Shown: in pieces, positions 115 through 13,590 of the stretch | Layout: each line of letters starts with the position of its first letter | Numbering within the stretch: position 1 is the first letter of the stretch | Assembly (NCBI GenBank): GCA_041736305.1 | Contig: JBGSTX010000365.1 | Location: forward strand, 1 to 25,755 | Source: Oligoflexus sp. | GTDB lineage: Bacteria; Bdellovibrionota_B; Oligoflexia; Oligoflexales; Oligoflexaceae | DNA: 25,755 bases | Reading direction: 5' to 3' | Made by a program: the position numbers and the translations under genes | Notes under the pieces: generated by a model | Database searches by the model: none | Told to the model about the DNA's origin: nothing | What the model saw: the letters and a program-made list of their open reading frames with translations, nothing else

Positions 115-161
115 GGTTCGAACCCTCGACCTCAACGTTGAGAAGGCAATGGTCTAGCCAA
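115..161 (-). pseudogene. Degenerate tRNA-Gly remnant (anticodon loop, 3' anticodon stem, variable loop, T-arm); probable left att junction
   Basis: Minus strand reads TTGGCTAGA-CCATTGCC-TTCTCAA-CGTTG-AGGTC-GAGGG-TTCGAAC-C. AGGTCGAGGGTTCGA is identical to the intact tRNA at 2266-2341. TTGGCTAGA..TTCTCAA aligns without gaps to the 5' half-tRNA at 3455-3493. There is no acceptor 3' strand or CCA. Confidence 0.7.
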
Positions 162-202
162 AAAGAAAGAGCCGCAATCAGGTAAGTACCCGACACGGCT
201 CT
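160..202 (-). terminator. Intrinsic terminator
   Basis: Minus strand AGAGCCG-TG-TCGGGT-ACTT-ACCTGA-TTG-CGGCTCT followed by TTCTTTTT, downstream of the Pol A remnant. Confidence 0.65.
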
Positions 203-237
203 GTAAAATTGTAGGTGTTAGTGACTTCCGGGGTTAC

Positions 238-1140
238 TTACGGGGGTGGCTTACGTCTTGGACTTGACCTTCCTGTACTTGATGAACAACTGCCGTCACC
301 GTCAGTGTCAGCACAGGCACTATCTTTATTATGCTGCCAGCCTTCACCACCCATCAGCTGCATGACGTCGCGTTTGGCCGTTGTAGCCATACCGATGAAC
401 TTGCCACTCTCTTCCCCTGAGCCAGCATCAAGACCTTGTGGAAGGCTCGGACCTTCTTAAGCTTGGCCTTGACCACTTCAGGATCCTTCAGCCACTGCTC
501 AGCGAACGTCAGGCCGTCCCAATCAGCCTCGAAAGCGTCTCGGATAGCTTTGCTTCCCAGTAGGTGCTACCGAAGCACCAGCCAGGTAGATATCATCTAT
601 CTGCAGGACGCCTTGCTGGTCATAGTACGGAGCTTTCCCCACCATACCGAAGCAAGCCGCATAGTAGTTCTTATCCTTTGAGAAGTGCGAGGTAACCGAA
701 GGCTCCCCTGCACCTAAGTCCACCGACACGAAGCTGAAGCCCTCCTCTGGAAGGACGTAACTTAGTAGGCCCTGCTCCTTACGCGCCAAGCCCTGAACGT
801 TCAACCCACCCCCACCAGCATATCTACCAGTCTTAGTCCCGCAGGCCTTAAAATCCTGGTGCCAGAGGCCGTCTAGTTTAGACAGCTCCGACAGCGTCCT
901 GTTCTGAGTAAGGACCAGGCCACGCTTCTTAACGTTGACCAGCATAGAGCCGCCGTCCCCATAACTATGGAGGTGGGCAGCTTTAAAGCTTGGGCTAGGT
1001 ATGAAGGGTGGTAGGTCCGGGTTCTGTTGGCGCTTCTTCTTAGATGCCTTACCTTCCTTAGTCCAGAACGTAGGCGCTATACCAAGCTTCCCGATGAACA
1101 GCTCGCCCAGCTGAGAGGTACTCTGAGGGTTGAACCGCAG
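238..1140 (-). pseudogene. Phage-type family A DNA polymerase fragment (frameshifted, truncated at both ends)
   Basis: The frame of ORF 523-945 is open upstream to FNPQSTSQLGELFIGKLG (~1080-1134, Pol A thumb motif). It contains TKTGRYAGGGGLNVQ (TGRLSS..NLQ-like) and VSVDLGAGE (motif A-like). After a frameshift near 550 it continues AIRDAFE...KKVRAFHKVLMLA (motif B-like RxxxK). Similarity is lost near 420; there is no motif C. Confidence 0.8.
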
Positions 1141-1159
1141 ATTGTCAGGGAAGGTAAAA

Positions 1160-1381
1160 ATGAACGACGAGATCGAAGAGCATGGTCTCTACATTCACGA
1201 CTTGAAGCGTATTGAGCTGAACCCTAATAGCAAGGAACCTGTTGAGACGCTGCTACATGAGTGCATACACGCGGCTTTAGCTGTGTCGGGGTTGGGTGAG
1301 GTACTGGGGGATAAGATTGAGGAGGCTGTTTGCAGAGCTGTTGAGACGGTAGCACCGAACATCTACTTTAAAGTTAAATAA
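1160..1381 (+). CDS. Small phage HEXXH (zincin/ImmA-IrrE-like) metallopeptidase-domain protein, possibly 5'-truncated
   Basis: HGLY...IELNP...ETLLHECIHA...IEE pattern. ATG at 1160 is preceded by GGAAGG, and a terminator follows. Confidence 0.6.
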   Translation: MNDEIEEHGLYIHDLKRIELNPNSKEPVETLLHECIHAALAVSGLGEVLGDKIEEAVCRAVETVAPNIYFKVK

Positions 1382-1383
1382 AT

Positions 1384-1416
1384 AAAGCCGCCTAGGGAGA
1401 CTTAGAGCGGCTTTTT
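1384..1416. terminator. Intrinsic terminator, probably bidirectional
   Basis: AAAGCCGC-CTAGG-GAGA-CTTAG-A-GCGGCTTT-TT hairpin immediately after the 1381 stop. Confidence 0.8.
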
Positions 1417-1420
1417 CTAA

Positions 1421-1449
1421 TTGACATAGGTGCGCAACGCCGGTAAAAC
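1421..1449 (+). promoter_or_regulatory. Sigma70-type promoter for the 1480 ORF
   Basis: TTGACA (1421-1426), 17 nt spacer, TAAAAC (1444-1449); GGGAG RBS before ATG 1480. Confidence 0.65.
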
Positions 1450-1479
1450 CCAAACACATCAACACTTTGGGAGCTATTC

Positions 1480-2034
1480 ATGAAAGTAATTCTCTTGACC
1501 ATGCTTGCGTTATCTTCGACGCATCTTTCAGGAGCTGAGTTTTTGAACCAAGAAGAAGCCATTGAAGCACATGAAGTTGAAGGCACCACAATTATCAATC
1601 GTGATGAGTTTGAAGCACAGTCAAATCAAGAAGCTATTGTTGTCGATGTTCAGCCACTGGTAAACGGTGAGGAGATTGTTACCGTTGAAAGAAATGGACG
1701 TACGGCGTTACTTGTGCCTAGCAGTCTCTTCGATAGGACTGTGGCTGTGACGATGGCCGAAAGTTGCGTATCTGAGTGTAGTGCAAGCGCCGTAGCCGGA
1801 GTGCTGGCCGGAGCTCTGGGGGGAGCAGCGTCGGGCGCTCAGGTAGGCGGCGCCCTTGGTGGCCCGCAAGGCGCGGCTGGCGGTGTGGTAGTAGGTGGCG
1901 CTATTGGGGGTGTCGCGGGCGGAATTACCGGCTGGGAGGTTTGCCGCATCGGAACCAGCTGTGGTGTTCCTATCATTCCTAACCCCGGTAGCATTGACCT
2001 TGAAAGACCCCCAATGATGTTAAAGGCGGACTAA
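1480..2034 (+). CDS. Secreted glycine-zipper protein with Cys-flanked core (bacteriocin/microcin-like architecture)
   Basis: Signal peptide MKVILLTMLALSSTHLSGA, an acidic middle region, then SCVSEC-(GxxxG repeats GVLAGALGGAASGAQVGGALGGPQGAAGGVVVGGAIGGVAGGITG)-VCRIGTSCG and a Pro-rich tail. Confidence 0.8.
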   Translation: MKVILLTMLALSSTHLSGAEFLNQEEAIEAHEVEGTTIINRDEFEAQSNQEAIVVDVQPLVNGEEIVTVERNGRTALLVPSSLFDRTVAVTMAESCVSECSASAVAGVLAGALGGAASGAQVGGALGGPQGAAGGVVVGGAIGGVAGGITGWEVCRIGTSCGVPIIPNPGSIDLERPPMMLKAD

Positions 2035-2181
2035 ATGGGAACCGTATTTGGAATAATGCTTACGTGGAATCTGCAGAGTGTGACCTGGCTTTTTGTTGGT
2101 GCCGCATTCGACGTAATTCTCCATAGGAAAGCTCTTAAGATGGGGCTTGTAGAGTTGCGAAGAATGGCGCTTTCCAGATAG
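2035..2181 (+). CDS. Unlisted 48-aa hydrophobic/cationic small ORF
   Basis: ATG directly abuts the TAA of 1480-2034. It translates MGTVFGIMLTWNLQSVTWLFVGAAFDVILHRKALKMGLVELRRMALSR* and lies before the 2227 terminator. Confidence 0.4.
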   Translation: MGTVFGIMLTWNLQSVTWLFVGAAFDVILHRKALKMGLVELRRMALSR

Positions 2182-2226
2182 TTGACGACGGCGGGCTCGA
2201 AGCCAGTATCAAGCCCGAAAATAACT

Positions 2227-2260
2227 AAAGCCGCCTTAGGTTTCCCTGGGCGGCTTTTTT
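2227..2260. terminator. Bidirectional terminator between the moron (+) and the tRNA (-)
   Basis: AAAGCCGCCTTAGG-TTTC-CCTGGGCGGCTTT-TTT hairpin. Confidence 0.85.
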
Positions 2261-2265
2261 GCGTT

Positions 2266-2341
2266 TGGAGCGGGTGAAGGGTCTCGAACCCTCGACCTTC
2301 AGGATGGGAACCTGACACTCTACCAACTGAGCTACACCCGC
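2266..2341 (-). tRNA. tRNA-Gly (anticodon CCC), intact, 76 nt, CCA encoded
   Basis: GCGGGTG TA GCTC AGTTGGTA GAGT G TCAGG TTCCCAT CCTGA AGGTC GAGGG TTCGAGA CCCTT CACCCGC T CCA. All four stems pair and the discriminator is U73. Confidence 0.97.
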
Positions 2342-3382
2342 TTAGGCGTCTAGATCTAACATAGCGCCTCCAACCTCGTCAAATGCCTCCTCAGGTCTCC
2401 TCACGTAAAGAGGCGTAGTGCTAGGCTGACTGTGCCGCGCATGGTTCTTAAGGTCCACAAAGTTGAGTTCACTATAGTGCCCTAGCCAATACAGTGACGC
2501 ACGGCGTAAGTCCTTTAAGGTGATCTTATTAATACCTGCCTTCTTCCACATTTTAGACCAGTGAGCACGCGACAATACCCCCCTTCTTACGGCTAGAGGG
2601 CTCATACACTGTCCCATCAGCGCTACGGCACTGGCGTATGTTGATCACAAGCTTACCGTATAAGCCGTGCTTCTCCATTACCTTAGCAGCCTCGAATATA
2701 GCCGCCCTTTTACCAGCTATAAAGTCCTGTTTGCGTAGACCGAACACTTCGTCAGTCCTCAGCGAGAAGAAGTAGCCTAGTAAAACCATCAGGCTAACTT
2801 CAGCAGTCGCGGCGTCACCTAGGAAAGCGAATATCTGGTCGGGTCTAAGGGTGTAGGTCAGCAGCGTCGATCTACTCCGTTCTGGTCGGTTCTATAACAT
2901 GAGATCGTGCCTGTGCTGGACGTAGCCTTGCTCCTGCATCCACCTATAGAATGCTCTAAAGGACACGTTACACCGATTGTGATGGTTAGCCGTCCAGGCG
3001 TTCTTGCTAAGCTGCTCGTACAGCTGACCGACTACAGGTACCAGTCGTTATAGTTCGGCTTATCTTAAAAGTAGGGTAGGACTTCGCAGAGCCGGTCTTT
3101 GTAAACTTGGATAGTGCTAGGATGCTTGCCCTGACTCATTAGGCATGTCAGGAAGCGTGTTAACAGGTCCTCTAAGTCGGCTAAGTCCACCTTAAAGGGC
3201 ATGCGATGCTCAATACTATTGACAGCAGCGTACCACCGCATCCAATCGTCGACTTCCCAGTCAGCCTTGGTGTCTAGGTGCTTAGTTAGTACTCGTGGTA
3301 AGGTTTTGGTCTCGCCGTTCGAATGGTGATAAACGAAAACACGTGTAGAGTTGTTGCGGCCTGGCTTTCTTTGGAAATACAT
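2342..3382 (-). pseudogene. Tyrosine recombinase/integrase pseudogene
   Basis: The pieces join into a core-binding domain (PSTIQVYKDRL; NRCNVSFRAFYRWMQEQG), box I SLRTDEVFGLRKQD, box II KDLRRA and ARHSQPSTTPLY. It is disrupted by TAA 3065-3067, a frameshift near 3030, TAG 2892-2894 and a frameshift near 2565. Confidence 0.9.
2353..2389 (-). promoter_or_regulatory. Putative tRNA promoter embedded in the integrase 3' end
   Basis: GAGGCATTTGACG-13 nt-TATGTTAGATC boxes. Both are identical to those upstream of the half-tRNA (3505-3541), while the spacer between them diverges. Confidence 0.65.
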
Positions 3383-3414
3383 GGGTCTAGCTCTCTACTT
3401 GGTTTGCCGAATAT

Positions 3415-3441
3415 ATATCGGATAACTATTGAGAACCTTTA
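3415..3441 (-). promoter_or_regulatory. Sigma28 (FliA)-like promoter upstream of the integrase
   Basis: TAAA-N15-TCCGATAT (TAAAGGTT-N11-TCCGATAT) versus the consensus TAAAGTTT-N11-GCCGATAA, 32 nt upstream of the ATG. Confidence 0.5.
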
Positions 3442-3454
3442 GACCACATTATAC

Positions 3455-3493
3455 TTGGGAACGTAGCGCTCTAGCCAACTGAGCTACACCCGC
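3455..3493 (-). pseudogene. 5' half of the host tRNA-Gly(CCC), broken right after the anticodon loop; probable right att junction
   Basis: GCGGGTGTAGCTCAGTTGGCTAGAGCGCTACG-TTCCCAA followed by non-tRNA sequence (GTATAATGTGG). Confidence 0.9.
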
Positions 3494-3504
3494 TTATGCG
3501 GCTC

Positions 3505-3541
3505 GATCTAACATACTATCGTTAAACCCGTCAAATGCCTC
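3505..3541 (-). promoter_or_regulatory. Putative native promoter of the disrupted tRNA-Gly
   Basis: GAGGCATTTGACG-13 nt-TATGTTAGATC, ending 11 nt upstream of tRNA +1, the same geometry as at 2353-2389. Confidence 0.65.
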
Positions 3542-3571
3542 TTCCGGGAGATGAAGGTACTAAAGCAAGAC

Positions 3572-4153
3572 TCAAGCAAGTCGACGCATCCGCTGCACCG
3601 CTTCGGAGGGCTCGTTGTCTTTGAGCAAAACCGCGGGGATTCCCACTGCGATTTTGAAAGCTGGAACGTCATCAACGACTACAGCGTTGGCCCCTAGAAA
3701 ACAGTTTTCGCCGACCTCGATGGGACCCAATATGCGCGCTCCTGCACCAATAACTGTATAAGCTCCAATCCTCGGGCTGCCTCTGAAGCGTGCGGCGCCT
3801 ATGGTATTCGATCCGAAAAAGACGCAGCCTTCGCCTATCTGTGCATCGCCGCCGACCACGGTTCCCACACTGTGCACAAAATAAACGCCATGCCCGAGTT
3901 TAATATCTGAGCCTAGTTCGATTGCATAAAGCATGGTTTGCAGAAAGCGGAGCGTGCGGTTGAGAAAGGGTATATGCCACTTCCTTGCCCACATGCGAAG
4001 TCGAAATGTGGCTAAGATCATATAAGCGTCGCAGGCGAAAATGGCCCACATGCAATTCCGAAAATTGATCGGCTTCTCCTCATACGCGAGGATTAAAGAC
4101 AAATCTCGATACAAATCATGGAAGAGCGAAAGCTCTGGTGTCTTAGGCTGCAT
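3572..4153 (-). CDS. Hexapeptide-repeat O-acetyltransferase (CysE/WcaB-like)
   Basis: Left-handed beta-helix repeats IGAYTVIGAGARILGPIEVGENCFLGANAVVVDDVP...VGIPA; last gene of the EPS operon. Confidence 0.88.
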   Translation of the reverse strand: MQPKTPELSLFHDLYRDLSLILAYEEKPINFRNCMWAIFACDAYMILATFRLRMWARKWHIPFLNRTLRFLQTMLYAIELGSDIKLGHGVYFVHSVGTVVGGDAQIGEGCVFFGSNTIGAARFRGSPRIGAYTVIGAGARILGPIEVGENCFLGANAVVVDDVPAFKIAVGIPAVLLKDNEPSEAVQRMRRLA

Positions 4154-5141
4154 AGGCTTTATCCTTCTCTTCAGGCCTTTTTACGGCATTTTCCAGCCAG
4201 TAGCCGCGCACGTAGTTGAGCGTATAGATAGCGCTGCAAAGCAAGGTGGCCAGTTTCAGCAGGCCAATTCCATTGAAAGCTTTAGCTAGCAGCACTAAAG
4301 GGCCATTCAACAAGAGGGGCAGACTGGGTAGCCACCAGGTAGCATGAGCGAGCAGGCGCTTGATAGAATTCGGCGAGCGCAGTACCATGCGCGGATGGAG
4401 ATCGAAGCGCTCTGGGTAAACCAATGACATCTTGAACTCATACTCACCATAGAGCTGGGCGCGCTTGATAAAAGAGCGAAAACGACCTGTCTGCGAGTGA
4501 TGAAAAGCCGAAGCAGCCTCTAGGAAATGGAAACGAGCATCAGATTTTTGTTCGATGCGAAGGCCAAGTTCGCGATCTTCGGCGTGCCGATACTGGCTTG
4601 AAAATCCGCCCACGGCTAGAAAGAGCTTTCGGGAAAGCGAGACATTCGCACTATAAAAGTGCTGTCCCGCCGGTTGGATCTTCCCGCTCGTGAATCCTTC
4701 GTACATTTTTCGAATCGAAAGCTCGTAGAAGTATTCAAAAGCTGGTCGCTTTGCAAGACTGAGCGGGGGAAGGATGGCGCCGAAAGCTACCGACTTCAGA
4801 TTGGTTTGCACGTGAAATAGGCGATGAATTTCCAGGAAATCTAGCGATGTGGGCTCCATATCATCGTCGAGAAAGAGTAGGATCTGCCCTAAGCTCGCGT
4901 CAACCCCCTTCTGCCGCGCGACCGCTTGCCCCTGGTTGTCCTGGCGGAGAGGGCGAAGCCAAGAATCTTGAGCAGCTCGTCGGGTAAGCACATCCCAAGT
5001 GGAATCTGTGGATCCATCGTCGACCACGATGAGTTCCGATGTGCTGCGGTCAACGCGCTGCTGAAAGAGCCAGTTGAGTAGAAGCTCCAGCCGGTCTGCA
5101 CGCTGATAAGTGGGGACGATAATGCTAAGAAAGCTGGTCAT
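4143..5141 (-). CDS. Glycosyltransferase family 2
   Basis: LSIIVPTYQR, ELIVVDDGSTD, LFLDDD (DxD) and AEDRELGLR motifs. Confidence 0.95.
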   Translation of the reverse strand: MTSFLSIIVPTYQRADRLELLLNWLFQQRVDRSTSELIVVDDGSTDSTWDVLTRRAAQDSWLRPLRQDNQGQAVARQKGVDASLGQILLFLDDDMEPTSLDFLEIHRLFHVQTNLKSVAFGAILPPLSLAKRPAFEYFYELSIRKMYEGFTSGKIQPAGQHFYSANVSLSRKLFLAVGGFSSQYRHAEDRELGLRIEQKSDARFHFLEAASAFHHSQTGRFRSFIKRAQLYGEYEFKMSLVYPERFDLHPRMVLRSPNSIKRLLAHATWWLPSLPLLLNGPLVLLAKAFNGIGLLKLATLLCSAIYTLNYVRGYWLENAVKRPEEKDKAYAA

Positions 5142-5153
5142 CGCTCGCGAGCC

Positions 5154-6434
5154 TCAAGTGTCAAAGAAAAATTTTCGGATAAAGTCTCGGGGATGGCGCA
5201 GGTAGCGTGCCCCGTTAAAAAGCATATCGAAATAGTAGGGCCAGGGATCCTGAGCATCATAAACTGCATCGGTATAGTGATGAGCGCGCCTCCAGCGGCC
5301 CCAGCCCTTCACCTCTGCCCAGCTATGCTTCCTTCCTAAAAAGCCTGCCCAAAGCGATAGCTTCAGGAGCCAACGCGTGCTGTAAACGTGAGTTTGGAGG
5401 GGCACCGCGCGCTCAGCCTGATCGAGTTGCTCTCTCAAATCGTCGGGGTGACAAGCTGCGTTTAAAGCGAGCAGAGGGAGATTCAGACCGCGTGCAATCT
5501 CAAAACCCATCTGGCCGTAATAGCGAGGATTGAAATCTATTAGGAGCTTCTTACCTGCAGCCGAATCCTCAATAAATTCAGCTTCAAAGACTCCGAAGTA
5601 GCCGAGCTTTTGGCAAAGCCTCTGCAATTGTGCGAGCAATTCTTGATCGACAGTTATCGATTCGAAGCAAAGACCAATACCGAGCTTCCTGGGCCTCTGC
5701 AGAACTTTGCGCGATGAACGCGCGACGATGCGTCCATCAGCTCCCACGAAACCCGCTATGCTGACAATAGACTGAGCTGCAACGGCAAAGTACTCCTGAA
5801 TCATGGGCCAGCCGACGACGGGGTCTGACGCAAGAAGTTGCTTCTGATATTGGAGCTGTTCTTTGAATGATAGATATGTCTGCCGAAAATCTTCGCCAGC
5901 GTTGACGATGCGCCCTTTGTGGCCAACTTTAAGGCCTATCTGGGTACGAGGCTTGAGGAGAAAAGGCGCCTTCTGCTTCGCCAAGACAGCCGCCAGCTCA
6001 GCCTCTGATTCTGGAAAAAAAGTGGGGGGCGAAGCGATGCCGACTGCTTCTCAAGCTTCCGACAGCATTTTTTTATTGAGGAGACTGTAGATGACGTGAA
6101 CTGCTGGCTGCCAGAGATGGAAATTAGCTTCTAGGCGTTTGCTATGGGCGGCATAAAGCCAGGCTGTATCATCGCTGGTCGGATAGAGGAAGAGCCCCGG
6201 ATTCGACTCGCCAAGTTTTACCAACCAATCGATATAGTTTTCCCACTGCTGCAAAGGCGGACAGCTGAGCCTTTTGGTGAGAAAACGGGAAAAGCCCGCC
6301 GTAGTCCATTTGCGCCACTCGCCTAGCAGGACTGGAGTTCCAGTTCGTCCGCTAGAGCGCATGGCAGCGAGGGTTCCACCGTAATCGCCCATGGTGAGAA
6401 AAATACCTCTTAACTTAGGCAGCGGAGGATTCAT
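5154..6434 (-). pseudogene. ATP-grasp carboxylate-amine ligase (D-aspartate-ligase-like) interrupted by one in-frame TGA at 6051-6053
   Basis: ORFs 6051-6482 and 5154-5984 share a frame and read LNKKMLSEA*EAVGIASPPTFFP. Motifs are LYPTSDD, FLLKP, MIQEYF, GYFGVFEAEF and LIDFNPR. ATG 6434 overlaps the flippase stop (ATGA). Confidence 0.8.
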
Positions 6435-7906
6435 CCTAAAACTCCTTGTTTCCGCCGAAACATGACCAGAAAACTTTTGCATTCTTGAATTGTAACGACT
6501 CGCGTAAGCAGGGCATAGACTGGTACGGCCAGCGCCAGCAGCAGCCGATAACCCAAGGGAAGCGCGATAAGCCTATCGTAGTAGGCCATGCCGAGCCAAC
6601 AAGGGAGAAAGTTGACAAAGACCCCGTAAACTATTTTTCGCTGGAATACCTTGCCCGGAAAAAGAAAGGCCATAGCCACGAAACTGTAGAATTCGCAGAG
6701 GAAAGTGGCGAAACTCACGGCTAAGGCCGCTCCGCCCTCGGGAGACCAGCTTTTGCCGATAGGAATAAAGAGGTAGTCGAGGCCGATGTTCAACACAATG
6801 CCGACGACAAATATGAGGGCCATCTTCCGTCCCGAGCTGCTGAGATTCAAACAGATAGCCATATAGGTGTTTAAATACATCATCGTGAGTACAGGCGAGA
6901 GAAAGCCGAGCACCTTAAAGCTCGGGGTGAAGGACTCACCGTAAAGAAGCCGAGCGATGTGATCGCCAAATATAATGAGTCCCATGCTGAGGGGGAGGGA
7001 GGCGACTAGTAGAAAACGGAGGAGTTGCTGGGCTAGGTCTTGGAAGGACCCGTCCTGGGCTGCAAAAGCCCGGGACAGAGCCGGCGTCAAGGCGTTATGC
7101 ATGACCGGTATCAGCAGGAGAAAGACCCCGATCAACTTATAAGCAGCCCCGAAATACCCAACCTCCTTCACATCGGCAAAGTGCGCGAGCATCGTTGTAT
7201 CAATTTCTGAGTAAACACCGTTGAGAACACCCGCCAAGTAAAAGGGCAGGCTGACTTTGAGTATGGACTTAAGCTGCATGAAGCTCGGCCGACCTTCGAA
7301 GTAACCGCGCTGACGCGATTTCCAGATAAGGTAGCCGAGCCCACAGACTTCCGAGGCTAGATACATGAGGGCAATGAAGGTGAGCGAGGGAAAGAACCAG
7401 AGGACGAGGAGGCAGCTGCATACCAGAATCAGTTTGACCACAACGTTGAGCCGAGAAATGAGTCTTACTTCATCGTGAGCCATGAATATGGTATGAAAAA
7501 TGCTTTTCTGAAAAATTAGAATGGCTGCAAAAGCACCCATGATCAAGGTCACCTTCGTCGTTTCCGCGTCTCTCCCGCTCCAGCTAAGAGTGCCCCAGAG
7601 GAGGAGTCCTAAGACTAGAGCCGCTACGCCCTGCAGTCCGAATATGGTGTTGAGAATATCCTTCGTATGGGTGGGCTGAGCTGGAATGGTTCGATTGATA
7701 TAGGTAGTGATGCCGAGTGGTAGAAAGGTGAAAAAGAGACTGGAGAAAGACTCAGCAAAATAGAAAATGCCCATCTTTTCGGGGCCAAATACTCGCGGCA
7801 AAGCCATGCGCAAAGCCAGCGAGATCAGCATTGTGATCCCGACTGAGATACCCATGATAGACACGTTGTGCGCCAAACGACTATGCAGGGAGGAAGCTTG
7901 ACTCAT
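6431..7906 (-). CDS. wzx: Oligosaccharide flippase (Wzx, MOP superfamily)
   Basis: 491 aa, many TM helices, LPRVFGPEKMGIF, SLPF...YSEIDTTML..EVGYFGAAYKL. Confidence 0.92.
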   Translation of the reverse strand: MSQASSLHSRLAHNVSIMGISVGITMLISLALRMALPRVFGPEKMGIFYFAESFSSLFFTFLPLGITTYINRTIPAQPTHTKDILNTIFGLQGVAALVLGLLLWGTLSWSGRDAETTKVTLIMGAFAAILIFQKSIFHTIFMAHDEVRLISRLNVVVKLILVCSCLLVLWFFPSLTFIALMYLASEVCGLGYLIWKSRQRGYFEGRPSFMQLKSILKVSLPFYLAGVLNGVYSEIDTTMLAHFADVKEVGYFGAAYKLIGVFLLLIPVMHNALTPALSRAFAAQDGSFQDLAQQLLRFLLVASLPLSMGLIIFGDHIARLLYGESFTPSFKVLGFLSPVLTMMYLNTYMAICLNLSSSGRKMALIFVVGIVLNIGLDYLFIPIGKSWSPEGGAALAVSFATFLCEFYSFVAMAFLFPGKVFQRKIVYGVFVNFLPCWLGMAYYDRLIALPLGYRLLLALAVPVYALLTRVVTIQECKSFLVMFRRKQGVLG

Positions 7907-12370: not shown

Positions 12371-13590
12371 AAAACCAGGCCGTAGATCATTGTATAGACC
12401 TGGCGCTCGTATTCGCGTTCGCCATCTTGCGTGGCTTGAGCACGCCCTTCTATACCCCACACGCCCCCCATCGGTTGCCGGTCTGAACCGACCTCATGAT
12501 TCCACCGATAGCTTAGATCGATGCTGTCTTCGTGCAGGCGTCCGCCGATCGACTCGACATCATCTTTCGACTTCGTTTGCTGCAGACCAAGTTGGAGACC
12601 GTGATTTTGATTTAGGGAGAGGCCCCAGCTGGCGAAGATCTGATCCGCGACAAAAATAGGATCGCCCGCACGGCGCTGATCGCTTGCGCGACTCATGCCT
12701 AACCTGAAAACGCTGACTCCGCGTAGGCCGCGATTGTCCTTGATATCGGCTCGTTCTTGCTTCTTTTTGGCCTTGAAGGGGTTTTGTTCGGACTGCTCAT
12801 CTTCGGAGCGGTGTTCGGTATTATAGGAAAGCGCGGCGAGATAGAGCAGTCCACTACCTTTCTGCTCGCCTTGACGCCTGATTCCGTATCCTACACTGCC
12901 ATCGAAGCCTAGAGTAGGACTGAGGGCGAGCAGCTGATCGATTGCCAGCTGGGTCTGATGATAGGGTTCCGTATCCTCACCCTGCTGCTCGCTTTGTCGC
13001 AGTCGCAGCTTGCTGGTACTCAGACGACTCGCATTATAGATGTAGGCGAATTCTGCGTCTTGCGTCTGCAGCTCGAAGTCCCCCTGCAGATTGTGGCTAA
13101 GTCCGATTTCGATACCGATGGCGTGTCGGGGATTGAAATTATGCTGGCTCGTGAATCCCAGCTGAATACTGGTAAATGGGGCGGGATCATCGCTCGCGAG
13201 GACCAATTCCACGGGCTGGTTGATAGGGTCATTGCCGCGGGTATGGTCGATACCAAAGGTCAGCGTCTGCGTACTGGAGGGAGCTGGCATCGACAAAGTG
13301 CTGCGGGCGTTCAAAATCTGATAATTTGTACGGGTTTTGAGGCTCTTGCCGAGATTGACTCCGAGATTGTGCTGCCACTGGCTGGCGATGCCTTCGGCCG
13401 TCAGCTTATAGCGACCCTCGAGGCCGGCGACAGGTTCCTCACGCTTGAAATCCTGGTCTATGGATAAGAGCCGGAGATGCTGGTAGCGCATTTCCATACT
13501 TCGCTCGCTTTTCCAAGGAGCAGCCTGGCTAAGAATAGGAGTCAGCAAGCTGAGCAATAGCGAGCCTGCGCGGGGGATTCGCAAGTGCAT
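12367..13590 (-). CDS. Outer-membrane beta-barrel protein (candidate polysaccharide secretion porin)
   Basis: Signal peptide (..LSQA), alternating amphipathic strands and a C-terminal beta-signal YTMIYGLVF. Confidence 0.75.
   Translation of the reverse strand: MHLRIPRAGSLLLSLLTPILSQAAPWKSERSMEMRYQHLRLLSIDQDFKREEPVAGLEGRYKLTAEGIASQWQHNLGVNLGKSLKTRTNYQILNARSTLSMPAPSSTQTLTFGIDHTRGNDPINQPVELVLASDDPAPFTSIQLGFTSQHNFNPRHAIGIEIGLSHNLQGDFELQTQDAEFAYIYNASRLSTSKLRLRQSEQQGEDTEPYHQTQLAIDQLLALSPTLGFDGSVGYGIRRQGEQKGSGLLYLAALSYNTEHRSEDEQSEQNPFKAKKKQERADIKDNRGLRGVSVFRLGMSRASDQRRAGDPIFVADQIFASWGLSLNQNHGLQLGLQQTKSKDDVESIGGRLHEDSIDLSYRWNHEVGSDRQPMGGVWGIEGRAQATQDGEREYERQVYTMIYGLVF

Follow-up and report, generated by a model that had tools for sequence, protein, structure and literature searches.

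The window analyzed here, all 25,755 bases of contig C101 from a draft genome of Oligoflexus sp. (392 contigs, 5.02 Mb, 92.7% complete, 2.7% contaminated), holds a transfer RNA (tRNA) gene for glycine with the anticodon CCC that is broken into two pieces, with a complete tRNA-Gly(CCC) gene lying between them. The DNA that separates the pieces (145-3454; 3,310 bases) is probably an eroded remnant of a temperate phage, which would have split the host tRNA-Gly(CCC) gene in its anticodon loop and replaced it by the tRNA that it brought along, a situation known as tRNA-dependent lysogeny. A preliminary description of this DNA had already proposed an integrase-bearing element in the loop of a host tRNA, carrying a whole tRNA-Gly(CCC), and this structural reading is supported by our analysis.

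The 5' half of the split gene lies on the minus strand at 3493-3455 and reads GCGGGTG TA GCTC AGTTGGCTA GAGC G CTACG TTCCCAA. It ends with the last base of the anticodon loop, and the minus-strand sequence past 3455 is not tRNA sequence. When the sequence beyond the loop at this junction, attL (from 3454 downward), was compared with a tRNA 3' half, no significant likeness was found (531 and 776 of 2,000 shuffles reached the score). The 3' piece, at 144-117 on the minus strand, reads TTCTCAA CGTTG AGGTC GAGGG TTCGAA, its first base being the first base of the loop. It was 81% alike to the complete tRNA over 27 nucleotides (nt) in the repeat search (family D4). The 3' strands of both the T stem and the acceptor stem are missing because the piece runs into a repeat at base 116. 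The only stretch common to the two junctions is the 7-base loop, whose copies (TTCCCAA and TTCTCAA) agree at six of seven bases. In the host anticodon stem, CTACG/CGTTG, four of five positions pair and one is a T-T mismatch. ARAGORN called no tRNA at attL or at the opposite junction, attR. The preliminary description had listed three tRNA-Gly pieces on one strand, a 5' half ending after the loop, the lack of a rebuilt tRNA at either junction, and an anticodon stem in the intact gene (TCAGG/CCTGA) that differs from that of the host; direct reading and ARAGORN bore these points out. Its 3' remnant, given as 144-115, does start at a copy of the loop but ends at 117 and is incomplete.

The sole tRNA that ARAGORN called in the window is a Gly(CCC) gene at 2266-2341 on the minus strand, hereafter the replacement tRNA. 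It scored 67.4 bits against the Rfam tRNA family, and its minimum-energy fold is a cloverleaf (-29.4 kcal/mol). Apart from the anticodon stem given above, it has the loop TTCCCAT, the D loop AGTTGGTA and the T loop TTCGAGA, and it belongs to a 76-nt type whose D loop is one base shorter than that of a 77-nt type. Its base 1 is the base directly after the TAA stop codon of an integrase gene. In 94 other genomes of the order, the closest tRNAs were at most 90% identical to it, and its upstream region had no counterpart among the nearest ones. The suspicion that 2266-2341 might be the only Gly(CCC) gene of the genome held for this assembly, in which no other was found among 36 tRNAs; Gly(UCC) and Gly(GCC) genes are present on other contigs. 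The codon GGG accounts for 15% of the glycine codons in long open frames. An intact tRNA standing between a dead integrase and a dead polymerase gene is compatible with its retention by selection, and with the idea in the preliminary description that the host keeps the decayed core for the sake of this tRNA, but is proof of neither. The evidence that survival of a lysogen would require this tRNA is circumstantial, namely, that it is the sole Gly(CCC) gene and is intact among broken genes.

The integrase gene in front of the replacement tRNA is a pseudogene. A tblastn search with four intact homologs found blocks of homology at 3379-3044, 3014-2565, and 2554-2345. The reading frame shifts at least twice, is interrupted by in-frame stops at 3067-3065 and about 2894-2892, and ends with the stop codon at 2344-2342. 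The intact homologs that align to it are about 375 to 400 amino acids (aa) long, and the C terminus, ...LY.RRP...LDLDA followed by the stop, is conserved through the last residue of the homologs. The pseudogene matched the phrog_216 integrase (E = 7.2e-5), the profile of its family matched a XerC-like recombinase in the PDB (E = 3.6e-9), and 6 of 13 family members matched Pfam PF00589. The family is a divergent branch of the tyrosine recombinases. An N-terminal fragment of the integrase found no match among the longer proteins of a 5.8-billion protein set.

A relative from the same genus, G009, provides a counterpart of the locus. Its orthologs of the acetyltransferase and glycosyltransferase genes that flank the element in the window are 65 to 68% identical in nucleotide sequence, and an uninterrupted 77-nt tRNA-Gly(CCC) gene lies 72 nt after the acetyltransferase ortholog; the corresponding spacing in the window is 78 nt. 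The first 27 nt of the orphan 5' half are identical to this intact gene. A match of this kind beside an orthologous acetyltransferase exceeds chance, and the broken tRNA-Gly(CCC) is the host's gene. The preliminary description had expected a relative without the element to have an intact tRNA of the host's stem type next to the acetyltransferase. G009 has the intact gene in that place, but the stem variant of the orphan half (searched as a 21-mer with up to two mismatches) was absent from every other genome of the order.

At attR, the element-side arm (145-176 on the minus strand) includes TTGGCTAGA, which is in register with the D loop of the target tRNA. It contains a run of nine in-register matches, which 11 of 200,000 shuffles reached; the in-register matches total just 14 of 32, a number that 268 of 20,000 shuffles reached. 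Given this match, the phage attachment site attP may descend from, or mimic, a tRNA 5' half. A 16-base match of the arm on another contig (C380) was set aside as chance, since it lies within an apparent coding frame and its surroundings are unlike those of attR.

We infer from this anatomy that a phage tyrosine integrase carried out recombination between a short core of attP and the 7 bases of the anticodon loop in the host tRNA-Gly(CCC) gene. The attP site would have had the form ...TTGGCTAGACCATTGCC TTCTCAA GTATAATGTGG..., and because it carried no tRNA 3' half, the host gene would have been reduced to two nonfunctional pieces (3493-3455 and 144-117). The lost function would have been supplied by the phage through the complete tRNA-Gly(CCC) directly behind the integrase stop codon, probably transcribed from signals within the last integrase codons. 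Later, the integrase and polymerase genes would have decayed, most of the phage would have been deleted, and the T loop of the 3' piece would have been hit by a dispersed repeat. Throughout, the phage tRNA would have stayed intact, and it would now be the tRNA-Gly(CCC) of this genome.

Twenty loci of the same integrase family were examined in other genomes of the order. Ten of them have an intact tRNA 13 to 216 nt upstream of the integrase (Pro, Met, Arg-CCG, Ser, Leu, Asp, or Ile), which is the classical layout; at two more, the 3' end of a tRNA was recognized by eye just upstream, and six have no tRNA within the fetched stretch. The last two, in G084 and G060, combine an upstream 5' fragment of tRNA-Arg(CCT) with a complete gene for the same tRNA 37 and 7 nt, respectively, behind the integrase stop codon. 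The G084 contig stops short of any 3' half. At the G060 locus (L066), the missing 3' half was found 9.6 kb downstream, and its acceptor strand CGCGACC pairs with GGTTGCG of the orphan, not with GGTCCCA of the replacement, which has its own partner, TGGGACC. The two junctions of G060 have a 9-base core, CTTTCCTAA, in common. This locus shows the complete arrangement of split host halves plus a replacement. Its element-side arm has 10 of 31 in-register matches, which is not significant. The element itself (contig C76; 8694-19000 of L066), 9.6 kb in size, has an open integrase gene of 389 to 404 aa, and 11 of its 12 open reading frames (ORFs; ten of 90 to 542 aa plus the integrase ORF) had no Pfam family at E <= 0.001.

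The anticodon arm of the G060 replacement is the same as that of the split host gene (GGGCT TTCCTAA AGCTC). Therefore, recoding of the anticodon arm is not a general property of these elements. The preliminary description had proposed that the rewritten arm of the Oligoflexus replacement might make the element immune to reintegration, and this idea found no support. If the region upstream of the orphan half is read as a trace of serial insertion (see below), a replacement copy would itself have been hit.

Integrative elements that target tRNA genes with a crossover in the anticodon loop reportedly form part of the Williams 2002 classification. The element described here is like such classical elements in the crossover within the 7-base loop and in the integrase adjoining attL; it differs in that the attP block of identity to the tRNA 3' end, which restores the gene, is absent. 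The closer parallel is tRNA-dependent lysogeny, which was described in 2024 by Guerrero-Bustamante and Hatfull in mBio, first for mycobacterial phages, and demonstrated experimentally for actinobacteriophages (PMC10865867), including Fionnbharth (K4), Cluster L, Gaia (X), and Gordonia phages (CQ2/DL). According to that paper, the integrase recombines attP with an attB site inside a tRNA gene, the tRNA is not rebuilt because the common core is too short (8 to 17 bp), and a cognate tRNA of the phage makes up for the loss. Gaia carries this tRNA downstream of its integrase, and classical rebuilding of the tRNA is known in close relatives of such phages (PMC10865867). The preliminary description had presented the element as a departure from what is known. 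Instead, it matches the system described in 2024: there is a tyrosine integrase, attB lies in a tRNA gene, no tRNA is rebuilt, a tRNA with the same anticodon is carried, and close relatives within the same integrase family rebuild the tRNA classically. The common core is 7 bp here, with six matching, and 9 bp in G060. As in Gaia, the tRNA is downstream of the integrase, and here it starts at the very base after the stop codon. All features of tRNA-dependent lysogeny that can be read at the sequence level appear to be present. The differences from the actinobacteriophages are the host, which belongs to the Bdellovibrionota and not to the Actinobacteria; the target, since Gly-CCC appears in that paper only among rebuilt sites; and the state of the element, a 3.3-kb fossil known from sequence, not an inducible phage. 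One sentence of the same paper mentions prophage Lj965 of Lactobacillus johnsonii, which reportedly has no rebuilt tRNA at its junction and encodes the cognate tRNA (PMC10865867); as far as that sentence goes, it resembles our element in both respects.

The mechanism has thus been known since 2024; what is new is the phylum (Oligoflexus-like Bdellovibrionota) and the condition of the element, a fossil with nothing but the replacement tRNA intact. Our reading would extend tRNA-dependent lysogeny beyond the actinobacteriophages to this group, with the anticodons Gly(CCC) and Arg(CCT). It would also illustrate a possible long-term outcome, in which the phage decays, its tRNA persists as the host's working gene, and a core translation gene is swapped for a foreign one. 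For annotation, an intact tRNA beside a dead integrase is normally called the target, whereas here it would be cargo.

Other explanations were considered. Integration could have been classical, with an attP-borne 3' half that rebuilt the gene at attL and was later deleted, and with the replacement tRNA as ordinary cargo that shares the anticodon by chance. Most family members are indeed classical, as in the 10 of 20 loci with an intact upstream tRNA, and the element has clearly suffered deletions. However, the deletion would need to start exactly at the last loop base, the cargo tRNA would need both the anticodon of the target and a position directly at the integrase stop, and these coincidences would have to be repeated at tRNA-Arg(CCT) in G060 and G084. 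We therefore regard this course of events as improbable. About equally improbable is that the 3' piece at 144-117 never was the partner of the 5' half and is debris of another tRNA or element, the true right end being elsewhere or lost. Its loop, TTCTCAA, gives no CCC anticodon, one stem position is mismatched, there is no acceptor strand, and a repeat and the contig end directly adjoin it. Nevertheless, the piece starts exactly at the loop, 16 of its bases are identical to the variable and T arms of the Gly type, and its CGTTG suits CTACG far better than it suits the stems of the replacement tRNA or of the G009 gene; moreover, G060 shows what a complete arrangement looks like.

An assembly artefact, in which phage and host DNA were wrongly joined at tRNA-like repeats in a contig from a metagenome bin, had to be considered in a draft of 392 contigs whose window begins in a repeat, all the more as tRNA-like words are common to many organisms in the same sequencing runs. 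Logan contigs of run X1 cover the window piecewise and with overlaps at a depth of about 3 to 8.5, and two of them span the junctions, 3425-3575 at 3454/3455 and 88-1159 at 144/145, without a single differing letter. X1 may be the source sample of the window, in which case these contigs amount to a second assembler and not a second sample. With both junctions spanned by overlapping contigs, we rejected an artefact as very unlikely. Least likely of all is a mirror-image integration, in which attP would carry the 5' part of a tRNA with its promoter, the gene after the integrase would be a hybrid made from the 5' half of the element and the 3' half of the host, and the element would shrink to the integrase segment of about 1.2 kb. 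The order of 5' fragment, integrase, and whole tRNA would suit such a model, and the upstream regions of the two tRNA copies are homologous. In G060, however, the two acceptor strands of the whole tRNA pair with each other and the host 3' half is 9.6 kb away, an arrangement that rules the model out. The replacement tRNA in the window is not a loop hybrid either, because its anticodon stem is changed on both strands with the pairs kept.

Several points weigh against a phage that split and replaced the host tRNA. The 3' piece is incomplete, and because it lacks the acceptor strand, the anticodon stem is the only place where pairing of the two halves can be assessed; one position there is mismatched. 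The polymerase gene fragment stops 260 nt short of the 3' piece, so deletions have reshaped that end, and the far host flank was not identified because the contig begins at base 1. No relative with both flanks joined was found, nor was an intact relative of this phage with the integrase-tRNA pair recovered. One X1 contig and one X2 contig do join base 137 to base 3456 with one letter between them (likeness 85); as a candidate empty site this joint allowed no verdict, its shorter side being 21 letters and indistinguishable from conserved tRNA-Gly(GCC) genes of this organism and its relatives. Integrase homologs with an adjacent full tRNA, a tRNA-Arg(CCT), occur in G060 and G084, but in the closest integrase clade (alignment A2) a tRNA lies downstream of the integrase in none of nine genome, 17 metagenome, and one viral loci. 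Dependence of the host on the replacement tRNA is not established because a tRNA-Gly(UCC) is present and may read GGG, and since the assembly is 92.7% complete, another Gly(CCC) gene may have escaped it. Finally, a consensus promoter scan called no promoter upstream of the replacement tRNA or of the orphan copy.

The DNA in front of the two tRNA copies points to a longer history at this locus. P1, the 55 bases in front of the orphan half, shows homology to P2, the final codons of the integrase: in a local alignment their z score was 13.1, with none of 500 shuffles reaching the score, and the repeat search grouped them as family D1 (81% alike over 73 nt). Both end with TAA directly against base 1 of a tRNA, and the upstream regions of G009, G013, and G006 are less like either of them than the two are like each other. 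Because the ...LDLDA ending before the stop recurs in relatives without a tRNA behind it, P2 is genuine integrase coding sequence, and P1, being homologous to it, looks like the relic of an integrase tail. The identity is concentrated in two blocks (13 of 13 and 11 of 11 positions), with chance level (4 of 13) in the spacer between them; the blocks hold TTGACG and TTAGAT, 17 nt apart. Such a distribution suggests that selection has preserved promoter signals in both copies. It also suggests that the 3' end of the integrase gene has a second role, as promoter of the replacement tRNA, and that selection held on to this part when the remainder of the earlier integrase was deleted.

As the reading of P1 that we favor, we raise, tentatively and with some doubt, the possibility that successive phage insertions turn over the tRNA-Gly(CCC) gene at this locus and that the broken gene had come in with an earlier phage of the same lineage. 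In line with turnover, the Gly(CCC) genes of the genus fall into three unlike types, of 74 nt (G002, G006, and G007), 77 nt (G009 and G013), and 76 nt (the window); the tandem Gly(GCC) genes of G002, G006, and G008 (L041, L042, and L045), unlike the Gly(CCC) loci L003, L012, L002, L116, and L117, do not differ in sequence. If the idea is correct, each insertion would lock the host to a new foreign tRNA, which would explain the divergence of Gly(CCC) beside identical Gly(GCC), and such phages would drive the repeated turnover of single-copy tRNA genes together with their promoters. Against it, the consensus scan called no promoter at P1 or P2, and the 78-nt spacing to the acetyltransferase is near the 72 nt of G009, which serial insertion would have to call a coincidence. 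In addition, when 91 tRNA upstream regions were scored in three frames with a profile of 24 integrase tails, P1 was outside the 40 best. The profile recovered three true integrase-tRNA junctions, and the best other region was that upstream of the G007 Gly(CCC) gene (E = 0.68). Since it missed P1, the likeness of P1 to P2 at the DNA level is what carries the reading of P1 as a relic.

In the 60 nt upstream of the Gly(CCC) genes at L116 (G007), L117 (G002), L121/L013 (G006), and L120 (G009), one frame gives peptides that resemble integrase tails, such as ...PQEEFDDAFMNDLDLET followed by a stop in G007, and such stops lie 2 to 7 nt before the tRNA. These peptides may reflect merely the common promoter words TTGACG and TTAGAT.

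The features of the locus are collected in Table 1. Besides the integrase and the replacement tRNA, the element contains a hairpin, three small ORFs, and a polymerase gene fragment, which together would be the stump of a phage. A terminator-like site was called on the plus strand at 2235-2250, within the hairpin at 2219-2260, and this hairpin repeats another at 1376-1416 (repeat search, families D2 and I1).

Table 1. Features in and around the element, with positions in the window
Feature	Position	Strand	Description
Dispersed repeat end	1..116		Copies on C234, C83, and C330
3' piece of the split tRNA	117..144	-	Loop copy, CGTTG, variable loop, T stem 5' strand, T loop to TTCGAA; attR at 144/145; cut at 116/117
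Family A DNA polymerase fragment	408..1152	-	Residues 292-543 of about 693 aa; both gene ends missing
83-aa ORF with HExxH motif	1130..1381	+	Weak metallopeptidase-like matches
Two cargo ORFs	1480..2181	+	184 aa (1480-2034) and 48 aa, hydrophobic (2035-2181)
GC-rich hairpin with T runs on both sides	2219..2260		Between the replacement tRNA and convergent plus-strand ORFs
Replacement tRNA, complete tRNA-Gly(CCC)	2266..2341	-	ARAGORN, Rfam, fold; 76 nt, encoded CCA
Tyrosine integrase pseudogene	2342..3382	-	Homology in three blocks, two frames
Orphan 5' half of tRNA-Gly(CCC)	3455..3493	-	Acceptor 5' strand, D arm, CTACG, loop TTCCCAA; attL at 3454/3455
Upstream region P1 of the orphan half	3494..3548	-	Homologous to P2 (2342-2396), the last ~18 integrase codons; promoter-like blocks
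Host hexapeptide-repeat acetyltransferase	3572..4153	-	Pfam PF00132, E = 1.5e-11; first gene of polysaccharide cluster; flank marker

The polymerase fragment is the only phage-type gene left, and no structural genes remain. Compared with P0001, a protein of 693 aa encoded on a 27.9-kb metagenome contig, it is 88% identical over residues 292-500 and, after a frameshift near 557-547, 70% identical over residues 490-543 in another frame. Full-length relatives of the polymerase, which carry Pfam PF00476, are encoded on metagenome contigs of 27.9 to 39.5 kb; besides P0001, they include P0002 (39.5 kb) and P0005 (38.0 kb). Among GenBank phages, the polymerase ORF had no protein match, P0001 matched only a Vibrio phage polymerase (22.7% identical), and the DNA of the element matched tRNA genes only. 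The relatives of P0001 in viral contigs were just 28 to 30% identical, and nothing was found for it at E <= 1e-30 in the 94 other genomes of the order. The junction pattern GGCATTTGACG-N13-TATGTTAGAT had no matches in viral contigs.

The larger of the two cargo ORFs, of 184 aa, has a signal-peptide-like start and a Gly/Ala-rich region; no Pfam family was found for either ORF. A paralog of the cargo ORFs (C185:8511-9202) is 72.6% identical in nucleotide sequence over 281 nt, and the island that holds it adjoins a transfer-messenger RNA (tmRNA) gene and an intact-looking integrase. The two ORFs could be a toxin or bacteriocin-like pair. The 83-aa ORF matched SprT-like (E = 0.0066) and DUF6782 (E = 0.0078) in Pfam, both under the gathering scores.

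On the host side, the polysaccharide cluster at 3572-7906 comprises the hexapeptide acetyltransferase, a GT2 glycosyltransferase, an ATP-grasp-like ORF (below the Pfam cut-off), and a Polysacc_synt flippase.

At the left edge, the contig starts inside the dispersed repeat that truncates the tRNA 3' piece, bases 1-116 being the end of that repeat. Further copies lie at C234:11-126 (91.7% identical over 108 nt), C83:~12760-12842, and C330:2691-2768, making at least four with the copy in the window, and two contigs begin inside the repeat. No Rfam family matched bases 1-116. The copies are about 80 to 116 nt in size, with hairpins and only short ORFs. In a Logan contig with a different flank, the match to the window ceases at base 116, and all copies finish at the same ...GGACGG (...CTAYRGGACGG).

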